DNA of 64,000 nt from Alphaproteobacteria bacterium (GCA_045632645.1 JAZQXC010000014.1:104637-168636); one strand, 5' to 3'. Numbered from the stretch's first letter, positions 47,204-52,032 are shown. Translations and numbers: made by a program. Notes: a model not told the origin generated them from the letters alone.

Positions 47204-47695
47204 ATGAAGAAAATATTTAAGTTCATTAAGTTTTTACTTATTTCTATTGTTGTTTTTTATGTTTATGCTATAATCGCGCGACTTTTGTTTAAAATGATTT
47301 GGAACTTTGGATTATTTAATCCAGAATCATATGCAAAATTGTATAACTTTTGGGAAAAAGGTGGTGTATTTAAAGAGTTTAAAGATTTAAGCCTAGCAGT
47401 TTGTCTTATTGTATTGCCTATATTATGGTTCATTACAAGTTATAAATTGTATAAAAAGGGCTTTTGGAAAACAATTTTGTCACCATTTTTTAAACTATAT
47501 AAAAAATTCACTCGCCCAAAAAAATTAGATGTAGAACATGTTTCTATAAAAAATTTAGGCTCTAAAAGTAGAAGTTTAGATGAAATCATCGCAGATAAAA
47601 TGAAAGAAAAGGGAGAAAAAGTATCACAACAATATACAACTATTGATATTAGACAGCAGGTGTCTGCAAAAGTAGAAGAAAATAAAATTCAATAA
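47204..47695 (+). CDS. hypothetical small membrane protein
   Basis: 163 aa, 2 TM helices, basic cytoplasmic tail. Confidence 0.4.
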   Translation: MKKIFKFIKFLLISIVVFYVYAIIARLLFKMIWNFGLFNPESYAKLYNFWEKGGVFKEFKDLSLAVCLIVLPILWFITSYKLYKKGFWKTILSPFFKLYKKFTRPKKLDVEHVSIKNLGSKSRSLDEIIADKMKEKGEKVSQQYTTIDIRQQVSAKVEENKIQ

Positions 47696-47753
47696 GTACT
47701 TGTTAACTAATTTAGTTATAATATAGTAAAAACAAAATAAACTGGAGATTTAC

Positions 47754-49061: not shown

Positions 49062-51278
49062 ATGGCAAAAGAAAGGGGTAAAGAATGGGAAGAGTATGAT
49101 AACGCCGTCAGGTGGATGACACTTACTTTTCTTATATCTATACTTGTATTTATTATATTTATTTATTTATCTCAACCTTTAGCTTTTTTGGTTCAAAGTG
49201 GTATTTCTAAAAAGAGTATAGCTGTTGTTACAAAATTCATTCAAAAAACGCTGGTAGACCCAGGTTTCTTATTTAACAGATATGTTAGATGGTTTAAGCA
49301 AGTATTTCAGTATCGTGGCGAGTTTAAAATCAGCTTATGGATTCCTATTTTGCCATTTATTTTACTACCTGCAACATTAATATATGGTGCAATTAAGTGT
49401 CCATACAGATTCCAATCAAACGTACATGGTTCAGCACACATTGCAACTCTAAGAGATATAGAGAGTATGCCACTTCTTGGTTTTGATGGTTTCTGCATGG
49501 TTGTAGGTAAATTCCAAGGCAGACTCTTAAAATTAAAAGAAACATTGTCAACACTATGTTGTGCTCCTCCAGGTACAGGTAAAACAGCCGGTGTTGTGAT
49601 TCCGACAATTTTCAATTCAGAAGGTTTAAGTATTATTGTTAACGACCCTAAACCTGAGTTATGCTATTCAACCACAGGTGCAAGAGAAAAAGTCGGTCCT
49701 GTATTTGTTATTAACTGGGGTAAAGAAGATGACCCGACCACTGGTGAGTATTATCCAAGCTGGAATCCACTTTCTCCAGGAACAATTCCAGAAGTAGGAC
49801 CAGCACGCGACTTATATGTTGACTCAATGTGCAACACATTAGTAGAAGATCCTAAAGGTGGTGGAGATGCTTATTGGTCACAAGCCGGACGAGGCGCTCT
49901 CTGTGGTTTAATTCACTTTGTGGTGTCAAAATGTGAAAAAGCGCTAGCAAATGAACGCTTAACTCAAAAAATATACGAAGGAACCCTAACAGAAGAAGAC
50001 AAGCAAGAGCTACAAATGCATTATGAAGATATGCAAAATGGTAGTTTTAAAACTAATGCAGCTCGTGCATTACAAGATTTACAAAATGGCACATTAAATC
50101 ACGAGAATTATCTTCCAATTGGTACATGGCGTTCATTCCCAGAGCGCTGGATAAATCATGAAGCATGTCTAGCCATGATTCTTGACTGGATTACCACTTC
50201 ACAAATTGAACAAAGTAATGAAATTAAGCGTCGTCAAGAAGAAGGTGACCAAATGGCAGCCTATGCAGACCTTATGGGTGAGTTATTGGACGATGCAACA
50301 AACGAAGCAAATGACTATGGCTACTCAAGACGTTGTATTACAGAGCTTAGTGGTTTGCGTGCAAAACCAGATAAAGAGCGTGGTTCTGTGTTATCAATGG
50401 CTTTCAATGGTATTCGTATCTTTAAAAACTCAGCCGTTGTTTCAAGAACAAGTTTCTCAGATATTAGATTTAAAGATTTGCGTGGTATGAAAGACCCAAT
50501 AACTGGCGAATGGAAGCCAATTTCCGTGTATCTGTCAGTAAACCAAACTGACGCTCAATCATTAAACCCAATTAGTGCTGTGTTTGTAGACTTAATGAGT
50601 GCTTACTTAATTTCAAACCCACCAAACTTTGTAAACCCAACAGATGGTAAAATGGGACCATTCCCAACACTATTCGTGCTCGACGAGTTTCCACAAATGC
50701 CAAAACTAAAAGCAGTTATTGATGGACCAGCCGTAGGTCGTGGTCAAAAAGTATCATACCTTCTCATCGGACAAGACTTAGGACAAATTTCCGGCAAATA
50801 TGGTAAAGATGACCTTGAAACAGTTATTTCAACCACAGCCTGCAAAGTAATCTTATCACAAAACAACGAGCAAACAGCCGAGCGTTTTTCAAAAATGATT
50901 GGTAACAAAACCGTACAAACCACATCATTTTCTAAAAACGAGGGTAGCTTAAATAAAGACTTTAACCCATTTGCTAAAAACGTAACATACTCACTTCAAG
51001 GTGTGTCTGCAATTAGCTCTAATGAGTTATTGAGTTTACCAATGTTAAAACAAGTTGTTTTAATGCAAGGTTCAATTGATACTCCAATTTTAGCAGATGC
51101 TCCGCGTTATTACCTTGATAAGCGTATGCTTGCACTAGCCAAATTACCACATTCACCATGGGTGCCAGATTGGATTGTTGCACAACGTGCAACAGAGAAT
51201 GAGGATATTTTATCTAAACTTGGCGTAGATTACGATCCAAATGCAGAGGAAATGGATTTTGAAATTGATGAAGCATAA
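49062..51278 (+). CDS. type IV secretion/conjugation coupling protein (VirD4/TraG/TraD family, T4CP)
   Basis: N-terminal TM helices; HGSAHIA (family hallmark HGSARWA-like); Walker A APPGTGKTAGVVIPT; DPKPEL; Walker B LFVLDEFPQM; acidic C-terminal tail [10 protein letters not shown]. Confidence 0.75.
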   Translation: MAKERGKEWEEYDNAVRWMTLTFLISILVFIIFIYLSQPLAFLVQSGISKKSIAVVTKFIQKTLVDPGFLFNRYVRWFKQVFQYRGEFKISLWIPILPFILLPATLIYGAIKCPYRFQSNVHGSAHIATLRDIESMPLLGFDGFCMVVGKFQGRLLKLKETLSTLCCAPPGTGKTAGVVIPTIFNSEGLSIIVNDPKPELCYSTTGAREKVGPVFVINWGKEDDPTTGEYYPSWNPLSPGTIPEVGPARDLYVDSMCNTLVEDPKGGGDAYWSQAGRGALCGLIHFVVSKCEKALANERLTQKIYEGTLTEEDKQELQMHYEDMQNGSFKTNAARALQDLQNGTLNHENYLPIGTWRSFPERWINHEACLAMILDWITTSQIEQSNEIKRRQEEGDQMAAYADLMGELLDDATNEANDYGYSRRCITELSGLRAKPDKERGSVLSMAFNGIRIFKNSAVVSRTSFSDIRFKDLRGMKDPITGEWKPISVYLSVNQTDAQSLNPISAVFVDLMSAYLISNPPNFVNPTDGKMGPFPTLFVLDEFPQMPKLKAVIDGPAVGRGQKVSYLLIGQDLGQISGKYGKDDLETVISTTACKVILSQNNEQTAERFSKMIGNKTVQTTSFSKNEGSLNKDFNPFAKNVTYSLQGVSAISSNELLSLPMLKQVVLMQGSIDTPILADAPRYYLDKRMLALAKLPHSPWVPDWIVAQRATENEDILSKLGVDYDPNAEEMDFEIDEA

Positions 51279-52032
51279 AAAAATATCAATTCCAGAAATA
51301 AATAAGTTCTCGCTTTTAGGAGCCTTAAAAAGCAGTACAAAGTTTGTACTGCTTTATTGGCAAACAGCTTTATTTTGGAGCATACTAAATCTAATTCTAC
51401 TATTTGTACTAAAGAGCATTCCAGGAGGGTGGACAAACTCTTTAAGCATATTATGGTTAGTTTCATATTATATATATTGGAATATGTTTTTTAGATATAT
51501 TCTCCAACATCAACCATATTTTTCTCTAATTCGTATTTTTAACGGACTAGTCCCTGTAAGTAAAATAATGTTCATAAATATTGGTATATATGTTATGCTA
51601 ATTATCATTCCATATATTCCATTATTAATGGGTTTCAGGGATAAATATCTTGAGTTTTTTGAAGCTTATATGGATATTTTAGAACTAAATAATAGCTTAT
51701 ACATCAAAGCGATGTTTTATATTTTGATGTTATTAGTTTCTCCATATACCATAATGCGTCCATATCTTGCATTTATATCTTCAATAGTTGGCAAAAGTCG
51801 TTCAATTATGGATGCATACAAAAAGACCAAAGGACACTACTGGCGTTTTGTGGGTTGCGCTACGATAATGAGCTCTGCTTTTGCATTATCAACATATATA
51901 AACACAGTGCATCATGTTGATATAACAATTTATCTGATGGCATTTCTTTTAACATATTTCAATATTATTTTTATAAATATGTATAAATATTTTTACAAAA
52001 GAAAAACCAAAGCTAAATTGTCATCTCATTAA
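51241..52032 (+). CDS. hypothetical polytopic membrane protein
   Basis: 263 aa, ~6 TM helices; overlaps the 3' end of the T4CP gene. Confidence 0.4.

Follow-up and report, generated by a model that had tools for sequence, protein, structure and literature searches.

A detached VirD4-type coupling protein operon with a NERD-fold membrane partner, probably belonging to a dispersed chromosomal type IV secretion system of uncultured gut alphaproteobacteria

Several chromosomal type IV secretion systems (T4SSs) offer a frame for interpreting new coupling protein loci. The rvh T4SS of Rickettsiales is vertically inherited and split over five islets, with duplicated virB4, virB8, and virB9 (PMC2653234). 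The X-T4SS of Xanthomonadales kills bacteria and relies on VirD4 to recruit toxin effectors that are paired with immunity proteins (PMC8740702). Congener killing has also been proposed for basal rickettsiae (PMC11077975). Here, we analyze an operon encoding a type IV coupling protein (T4CP) within a 64,000-nt stretch of Alphaproteobacteria bacterium DNA (GCA_045632645.1 JAZQXC010000014.1:104637-168636; G+C ~32%), the whole of which is referred to below as the window. The original prediction made on this DNA described positions 47204-52032 as an orphan T4CP flanked by hypothetical membrane proteins. Our findings favor another reading: the operon likely provides the VirD4 component, separated from the channel genes, of a VirB-like T4SS that is scattered over the chromosome and belongs to the core gene set of an uncultured alphaproteobacterial lineage from the gut, and it includes a new NERD-fold membrane partner. 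Thus, this T4CP is probably not an orphan.

The four open reading frames (ORFs) delineated originally were all recovered, as was their tight packing with uncharacterized membrane proteins. However, the transcription unit is larger than first proposed, because six tightly spaced plus-strand ORFs, with intergenic gaps of 7-68 nt, fill the interval bounded by two minus-strand genes, rluD (42911-43912) and ligA (52013-54103). The operon thus comprises six same-strand genes at 44007-52032, including g430 and g609, and its last gene, g263, overlaps the T4CP stop by 38 nt. By hydropathy, g163, g432, and the T4CP have two transmembrane (TM) segments each, and g263 has three or more. Scanning for promoters and terminators yielded no enrichment over shuffled sequences. 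The features of the operon are as follows.

44007-45299, plus strand: g430, first operon gene, 430 aa; an acidic, soluble protein whose C-terminal half is helical and conserved; no Pfam/NCBIfam family
44331-44526, plus strand: 42-bp tandem repeat (4.7 copies) within g430, encoding the unit GLDSFLTPEEPKxT
45367-47196, plus strand: g609, 609 aa, a fast-evolving repeat protein in the variable slot between g430 and g163
45484-45693, plus strand: 18-bp tandem repeat (11.7 copies) within g609, encoding TPQGxP units
47204-47695, plus strand: g163, 163 aa, a small 2-TM membrane protein
47754-49052, plus strand: g432, 432 aa, TTG start; 2-TM N-terminal module, disordered linker, and C-terminal domain with a predicted nuclease fold
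48324-48377, plus strand: acidic-aromatic motif of g432, HALFNFDDDDFDLDFDLD (residues 191-208), a candidate docking motif in an otherwise disordered linker
48561-49049, plus strand: NERD-like domain of g432 with a predicted PD-(D/E)xK fold (residues 270-432)
49062-51278, plus strand: VirD4/TraG-family T4CP, 738 aa
49563-49598, plus strand: T4CP Walker A, APPGTGKTAGVV (residues 168-179)
50670-50693, plus strand: T4CP Walker B, LFVLDEFP (residues 537-544)
51243-51275, plus strand: acidic-aromatic C-terminal tail of the T4CP (residues 728-738)
51241-52032, plus strand: g263, 263 aa, a polytopic membrane protein with no family match

The 738-aa protein is a genuine VirD4/TraG-family T4CP. All three Pfam profiles that had been suggested as a check on its identity match above their curated cut-offs: T4SS-DNA_transf (3.1e-57; 194.9 bits versus a cut-off of 20.1) and, also by a wide margin, TraG-D_C (1.1e-21) and TrwB_AAD_bind (5.1e-17). 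The last match supports the presence of an all-alpha domain inserted in the nucleotide-binding domain, and the ~200-residue stretch between the two T4SS-DNA_transf matches is kept across the T4CP subfamily. Every T4CP motif quoted in the original prediction is present in the translation, i.e., HGSAHIA (residues 122-128), Walker A, DPKPEL (195-200), and Walker B, together with the acidic tail, which is also found in the T4CPs P0079 and P0041. The N-terminal anchor is made up of two hydrophobic stretches that begin around residues 14 and 88. Nonetheless, this T4CP belongs to no named NCBIfam equivalog. Among the models compared (VirD4 PRK13897/PRK13850, TraG PRK13876/PRK13880, TraD TIGR02759, and CD1115), the best score was 151.6 bits (cut-off, 250) and that of VirD4 PRK13897 was 138.4 bits (cut-off, 728); 10 subfamily representatives likewise all fell below the NCBIfam cut-offs. 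A single-sequence (phmmer) search of the PDB retrieved TrwB alone, weakly, and a subfamily profile run with hmmsearch against all PDB chains retrieved Helicobacter pylori Cagβ (8dol; 2e-10) and TrwB (2.5e-3). The best plasmid-borne matches, on Erythrobacter aureus NZ_CP031358 and Sphingosinicella p1, are 34-35% identical over ~78% of the protein.

This operon is a core, vertically inherited trait of an uncultured gut/rumen alphaproteobacterial lineage. Scanning a one-genome-per-species collection with a 7-sequence T4CP alignment identified a relative in 481 species representatives. The best 80 of these show 66-88% T4CP identity and are almost all labeled as gut/rumen alphaproteobacterial, or simply proteobacterial, metagenome-assembled genomes (MAGs). 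A protein search returned 1714 matches, including at least 120 homologues at 70-86% identity, under source names such as "Azospirillum sp. CAG:260," "Acetobacter sp.," and "Alphaproteobacteria bacterium" MAGs. We take this lineage to be the group that GTDB calls RF32, a label that is unconfirmed, and we know of no cultured representative. Of the ~65 loci with sufficient upstream sequence, nearly all show the order rpoH (minus strand), rluD (minus strand), g430, a variable gene, g163, g432, and T4CP. Within the clade nearest to the window (L006-L022), identity to the window amounts to 78-88% for the T4CP, 85-90% for RpoH, 67-82% for RluD, 78-84% for LigA, 56-67% for g432, 49-70% for g430, 39-57% for g163, and 53-68% for g263, and it is at most 30% or undetectable for g609. 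Conservation of the T4CP therefore equals or exceeds that of RluD and LigA. Base composition is native. The T4CP gene (49001-51000) has the highest G+C in the window, 0.37-0.385 compared to ~0.29-0.33 in its neighbors, which fits strong amino acid constraint rather than a foreign origin.

Four MAG records that carry the locus at 68-69% T4CP identity (L046, L056, L057, and L066) are labeled Lachnospiraceae, [Ruminococcus] gnavus, Bacteroidaceae, and Lactobacillaceae; these off-lineage names point to mis-binned contigs or mislabeled MAGs. A defense-system reading of the locus was also considered and set aside. PADLOC reported just mad8 (8e-4, for the P-loop region of the T4CP) and AbiEii (0.012), none of its defense models matched g432, g163, or g263, and lineage-wide conservation at a single locus is unlike that of defense islands.

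The connection to a secretion channel comes from relatives. A metagenome scan seeded with a 37%-identical T4CP representative recovered mostly the same clade, plus divergent loci (L108-L165) with T4CP identities of 35-58% and G+C of up to 0.60. When VirB proteins of the Erythrobacter plasmid were searched by tblastn against 2.67 Mb of relatives' loci and the window, with Pfam confirmation, just two loci gave matches. L158 reads g432, a TM protein, T4CP, c3, c2 (two genes discussed below), a 58-aa ORF, virB8, virB9, and a giant virB10. In L126, virB9, virB8, and virB8 lie ~6 kb from a g432-g432-T4CP array, on the opposite strand. The window itself contains no VirB homologue detectable by tblastn with either of two independent VirB protein sets, in agreement with the original prediction. 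Similarly, no virB gene occurs within 10 kb of the T4CP in ~150 main-clade loci, virB genes are absent from every T4CP locus with identity of at least 64%, and homologues of the remaining virB-cluster ORFs were not found within that distance in the main clade or in the window. The orphan label thus holds locally, the window being devoid of channel genes, but very probably not beyond it, since relatives link the g432-T4CP module to virB8, virB9, and virB10.

Channel genes are present in related bacteria. A protein search with the L126 VirB9 yielded 1944 relatives, many of them named "MAG: Alphaproteobacteria bacterium," a family similar in size to that of the T4CP (1714 matches). Nine distinct virB8-virB11 loci were retrieved from gut alphaproteobacterial contigs (among L168-L179), and virD4 is present in none of them. 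Most of the full-length loci (L168-L175) begin with 4-6 small ORFs, the majority with one N-terminal TM segment, and a ~520-aa protein, followed by virB8, a 58-65-aa ORF, a second virB8, virB9, virB10, and virB11. Housekeeping genes flank the cluster: it is preceded by lptD-surA-folD in several loci and followed by htpG, fadL, or dxs. The VirB9 product (CagX) often bears a C-terminal SPOR peptidoglycan-binding domain. VirB10 is a giant of 1598-2430 aa, with the TrbI domain at the C terminus in most copies, encoded at the following positions.

L169, 11818-18615: giant virB10
L172, 11762-18331: giant virB10
L173, 11818-18390: giant virB10
L175, 11685-18176: giant virB10
L179, 11608-18552: giant virB10

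Long repeat regions, with faint to clear matches to Pfam Bflower_2, precede the normal TrbI/VirB10 C-terminal domain of this protein. NCBIfam models for VirB10 (2.7e-33), VirB11 (4.1e-41), and VirB9 (1.5e-7) match the cluster proteins, and DotG and DotB score far worse, which supports assignment of the cluster to a divergent VirB type.

These loci form two complementary sets, virB clusters without virD4 and virD4 operons without virB. Both sets come from gut/rumen samples and have overlapping G+C (0.36-0.50 for the virB loci versus 0.31-0.53 for the T4CP loci). The tetranucleotide correlation between L172/L173 and T4CP loci of the window's clade is 0.96-0.97, and G+C at third codon positions is 0.27 for VirB9 and 0.26 for the T4CP. 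Identity levels run in parallel: main-clade VirB9 proteins are 55-83% identical among themselves and 44-52% identical to the L126 type; for T4CPs, identity to the window protein is 66-88% in the main clade and 57% for the L126 type. A MAG labeled "Rickettsiales bacterium" encodes a T4CP of 49% identity, which is among the most similar ones beyond the clade.

The constant partner of the T4CP is g432, on structural modeling an undescribed membrane-tethered protein with a predicted nuclease-like fold, and not DotM. Its pairing with the T4CP, anticipated by the original prediction, is maintained in relatives: even where T4CP identity is as low as 47%, g432 is the gene just ahead of the T4CP, and most relatives at 47-58% keep it there. 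A protein search returned 998 homologues, none with a name, and PLSDB contains no plasmid with a relative of its NERD-like domain. The architecture deduced at the outset, with two TM helices, a Pro/Gln linker (residues 117-129), an acidic patch (191-208), and a folded domain (270-432), was corroborated. Alignment of 35 homologues revealed a conserved 2-TM N-terminal module, a variable basic/Pro-rich linker, an acidic-aromatic motif, and a highly conserved C-terminal domain. The motif, HALFNFDDDDFDLDF, is largely invariant across this set, with invariant columns at H191, A192, L193, F194, F196, D200, F201, D202, D204, and F205. AlphaFold2 modeled residues 270-432 with a predicted local distance difference test (pLDDT) score of ~85-90, a disordered linker, and low pLDDT around the acidic motif.

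Two agreeing fold searches, Foldseek included, assign the C-terminal domain of the g432 model to the PD-(D/E)xK/NERD fold, with an alpha-beta-beta-beta-alpha-beta core. Pfam NERD (PF08378) matches 18 of the 35 homologues at E<0.1 (best, 3.4e-5), and g432 of the window itself stays below the Pfam cut-off (14.5 versus 22.1 bits). Acidic residues D294, D309, and E311 are invariant. The canonical ExK reads D-(K/R)-E (D-R-E in the window), with the lysine displaced; in a manual alignment, the L158 homologue seems to carry D-D-K at this position. An acidic loop of ~30 residues (313-342) is extremely conserved.

A second membrane protein, g163, is kept at its position in most related loci, and the N-terminal membrane modules of g163 and g432 are paralogues (pairwise BLASTP E, 6e-4; 6.6e-9 for the match between the L001 orthologue of g163 and the g432 N terminus). 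Upstream of the T4CP, the g432-type gene is tandemly duplicated in L108 (6650-8888), L126 (7637-9848), and L139 (7674-9810). In the window's lineage, the second g432 copy may be represented by g163 as a truncated paralogue. More distant T4CPs, at 35-36% identity (L144, 8834-9838; L155, 495-1595), lack g432 and are preceded by a pentapeptide-repeat protein (Pfam Pentapeptide, 1e-17), with a gene for a small polytopic membrane protein upstream on the opposite strand; this looks like a different partner set for a neighboring T4CP subfamily.

Genes next to the T4CP in sister lineages offer a hint as to cargo. In many of them, two genes, c3 and c2, directly follow the T4CP, e.g., at 12237-12851 and 12835-13284 in L001, and the pair is also downstream of the T4CP in L118, L126, L138, L143, and L158 and in the clade of P0079, whose T4CP (71% identical) is indexed in 7040 blocks of a public assembly collection. 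The c3 product ranges from 184 to 368 aa over the 39 copies found and has a conserved C-terminal block, in which H142 is near-invariant, N157 is invariant, and H167/H171 are near-invariant. We read this spacing, 15 and 10 residues, as that of the H-N-H of ββα-metal nucleases, and hence c3 as a putative HNH protein. The c2 product (~145 aa) gave subthreshold SUKH/SMI1-KNR4 matches in all four proteins tested (best, 5.9e-5). An HNH nuclease next to a SUKH protein is a classic toxin-immunity arrangement, which c3/c2 resembles. This analogy suggests T4CP-dependent delivery of a DNase toxin to neighboring bacteria.

Taken together, these data favor the following model. In the window's lineage, virD4 would have been separated from virB11 and housed in its own six-gene operon beside rpoH-rluD, with virB8-virB8-virB9-giant virB10-virB11 at another, housekeeping-flanked site, as in related genomes. 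A T4CP hexamer would sit in the inner membrane, anchored through the two TM helices of the T4CP. Via their common 2-TM module, g432 and the smaller, paralogous g163 would join it to build a lineage-specific coupling complex, which would offer the cytoplasm an invariant acidic-aromatic docking motif and a NERD-like nuclease-fold domain. The all-alpha domain of the T4CP and the g432/g163 platform would then bind substrates and pass them to the VirB channel. Because c3/c2 looks like a toxin-immunity pair, an interbacterial DNase toxin is a likely cargo class in sister lineages, and the window's clade would have replaced the pair by g263. In its boldest form, the proposal is that g432/g163 define an undescribed coupling complex, in which VirD4 is obligatorily partnered with a membrane-tethered NERD-fold protein bearing an invariant acidic-aromatic docking motif and serves a scattered giant-VirB10 T4SS, core to a very prevalent uncultured alphaproteobacterial lineage of human and ruminant guts, that delivers nuclease toxins or processed DNA to neighbors; this remains tentative, and we would sooner doubt than assert it.

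Several observations weigh against this model. Comparison of exact protein matches and whole-genome shotgun prefixes revealed no genome of the window's clade with both a virB cluster and a T4CP operon; their co-residence is supported by a shared sample, BRZ_CT (L024 and L169), plus composition. The T4SS link derives from two more distant relatives, habitat, composition, and reciprocal absence. None of the related contigs yielded VirB2, VirB3, VirB4, or VirB6, which leaves completeness of the T4SS unproven. Adjacency of T4CP and virB is not general, because L179, with an L126-like VirB9, had no T4CP called within 10 kb of virB8. We infer, rather than observe, the association of g432 and g163 with the T4CP. 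The HNH call on c3 comes from motif spacing: no Pfam family matched, and the sole PDB profile match is nonsignificant (E, 2.6) and falls in the C-terminal part, not confirmed as an endonuclease domain, of a group II intron maturase. Finally, c3/c2 homologues are nowhere in the window, where g263 takes their place.

Against this background, other explanations of the locus must be weighed. One of them dispenses with a VirB channel, the T4CP and its NERD-like partner acting as an inner-membrane DNA/protein translocase or as the stand-alone effector-recruitment platform contemplated by the original prediction. The self-contained, conserved nature of the operon, the lack of virB genes in the window and within 10 kb of the T4CP in the ~150 main-clade loci, and the failure to obtain same-genome proof of a T4SS would all fit. 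We nevertheless regard this as unlikely, since L158 has virB8-virB9-virB10 next to the g432-T4CP module and L126 has virB genes ~6 kb away from it, the virB8-virB11 clusters of related gut genomes lack the virD4 normally found after virB11, and, to our knowledge, no VirD4-family T4CP moves substrates across the Gram-negative envelope alone. At the opposite extreme, an ordinary conjugative T4CP next to a complete T4SS just beyond the window does not match what is seen in relatives either: the T4SS observed there is not conjugative, and wherever T4CP identity is at least 64%, more than 10 kb separates it from the T4CP. It is also improbable that the NERD-like domain of g432 is an active, membrane-tethered, relaxase-like nuclease or nickase that prepares DNA for pumping by the T4CP through a T4SS. 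T4CPs are DNA translocases in conjugation, MOB_C relaxases with a restriction-endonuclease fold provide an analogy, and the predicted PD-(D/E)xK fold with its invariant D294, D309, and E311, the extremely conserved 313-342 loop, the apparent D-D-K of the L158 homologue, and the HNH-like nucleases beside the T4CP in sister lineages are all consistent with such an activity. However, the catalytic lysine is replaced in the window's clade, g432 of the window scores below the Pfam NERD cut-off, the system is vertically inherited rather than borne on a mobile element, and no oriT (origin of transfer)-like repeats, relaxase, or accessory DNA-binding proteins were detected in the window sequence or the ORFs scanned.

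Two further suggestions of the original prediction fare worse. A decayed integrative conjugative or mobilizable element inserted between rluD and ligA might come to mind because a T4CP without channel genes is typical of mobilizable elements and decaying integrative and conjugative elements, and the downstream neighbor does vary by clade, being ligA in that of the window and other genes elsewhere. Yet upstream synteny, from rpoH-rluD to the T4CP, holds in nearly all loci that are long enough, and the T4CP, with all its motifs intact, is 66-88% identical across species and as conserved as rpoH and ligA. The window lacks tRNA genes and flanking direct repeats that could mark attachment sites, base composition is native, and the partner has no plasmid homologue. 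No relaxase or integrase family emerged from a Pfam scan of 20 further window ORFs, a search that left out ~20 smaller ones, so that the absence of relaxases noted originally holds for the ORFs scanned. A remnant is therefore unsupported and extremely improbable. Hardly more credit is due to a type IVB (Dot/Icm-like) subcomplex, with the T4CP as a DotL homologue and g432 as a DotM homologue. The gene order and the partner size resemble those of icmP(dotM)-icmO(dotL), and the acidic motifs recall the Glu-rich signals bound by DotM. Nevertheless, DotL, whose chains are in the PDB, was absent from both the phmmer and the profile searches with the T4CP, which pointed to Cagβ and TrwB; DotM was missing from the g432 PDB profile search (E up to 10) and from the listed fold matches; and the linked channel genes are of the VirB8/9/10/11 type. 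A functional analogy to DotL-DotM, with a membrane adaptor seated on the T4CP, may still hold and forms part of the model favored here.

Within the dispersed VirB-like system that we favor, the remaining operon genes could also contribute to substrate handling. Homologues of g430 (38-70% identity) directly follow rluD in almost all related loci; its single-sequence AlphaFold2 model has a pLDDT of 45. g609 is hardly recognizable even in the closest relatives, where a different ~476-aa protein occupies its slot. Acidic-aromatic motifs (LDEF, GLDSFL, DFDLDF, and MDFEIDE) are common to g430, g432, and the T4CP tail. It may be speculated that g430 and g609 are candidate adaptors or substrates, because the shared motifs and the very fast evolution of g609 would fit such roles. 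g263, with homologues in the closest clade only, stands where many relatives hold the HNH-like/SUKH-like pair. The 18-bp array in g609 also yields, at 45362-45748 on both strands, spurious long ORFs of 113, 83, and 92 aa in other frames and antisense, which are repeat artifacts.

Elsewhere in the window, Pfam identified RadA, a BatA-D operon, iPGM, CtpA, an M23 peptidase, GlmM, RecN, Tgt, a DnaJ-domain protein, TolC/AcrA-type efflux parts, and an ABC transporter. The ATPase gene of the latter (59455-61395) is bracketed by two plus-strand ORFs of 472 and 462 aa (57971-59389 and 61691-63079) without a Pfam match. Three more ORFs had none at E up to 1e-5: 3957-4916 (minus strand), 15223-16311 (plus strand), and 16923-17951 (minus strand). 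The BatA-BatD-like operon (VWA, VWA-TPR, and BatD domain proteins; 4925-9973, minus strand) is ~40 kb upstream of the T4CP operon; a Bat operon also lies a few kilobases from the L179 virB cluster, a synteny that is probably coincidental.

With these results, the surprise of an orphan T4CP largely dissolves and gives way to uncharacterized machinery in a gut lineage that is common in metagenomes, with a partner protein that represents a testable coupling-complex architecture. A literature search found nothing relevant on secretion systems of RF32/CAG-239 or on NERD proteins paired with a T4CP. More generally, a T4CP with no channel genes nearby can still be a component of a chromosomal T4SS whose genes are dispersed; orphan calls need genome-wide checks. 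If it is a true T4CP subunit, the NERD-fold partner would add a new type of coupling-complex accessory to DotM/DotN/IcmSW and the TraM type. The c3/c2 pair in sister lineages further suggests T4SS-mediated interbacterial antagonism in the gut.

Comparison with known systems delimits what is particular to this locus. The likeness to Legionella DotL-DotM (IcmO-IcmP) is one of concept, i.e., an inner-membrane partner with two TM helices that is dedicated to the T4CP and whose gene immediately precedes it, together with a role for acidic motifs; no sequence or fold relation is detectable, the partner domain is predicted to be of the PD-(D/E)xK/NERD type, and the channel genes are VirB-type. g432 also departs from other NERD/PD-(D/E)xK proteins in that the domain is joined to two TM helices as an anchor and to a disordered linker of considerable length and in always standing beside a T4CP, and its family reads D-(K/R)-E, with an invariant acidic 30-residue loop, instead of the canonical E-x-K.

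The VirD4 proteins of Erythrobacter and Sphingosinicella plasmids share the domain order of the window T4CP and have VirB-type partner genes. They are, however, the last gene of a contiguous virB2-virB11-virD4 array on megaplasmids with relaxase and replication genes, whereas the window T4CP lies on the chromosome, apart from channel genes, and has g432 and g163 as its partners. Like the X-T4SS, the system would be a chromosomal VirB/VirD4 machine, and sister lineages carry a nuclease-like c3 and an immunity-like c2 after the T4CP. It differs from the X-T4SS in that c3 is conserved in its C-terminal part, the putative HNH domain, that the window lacks the pair, and that killing is putative.

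Differences from the rvh system of Rickettsiales are also marked. In Rickettsia, virD4 follows virB11 in the virB8-virB11 islet; here, it is detached, in an operon of its own with g430, g163, and g432. VirB10 is giant, duplication was seen for virB8 and not for virB9 in the related virB loci, the T4CP reaches 138 bits against the 728 demanded by PRK13897, and the NERD-like partner has no counterpart described for rvh. On the reading favored here, what both have in common is a chromosomal, vertically inherited, P-type (VirB-like) alphaproteobacterial T4SS whose genes are distributed over separate sites, with a duplicated virB8 and a T4CP free of any link to a relaxase or mobile element.

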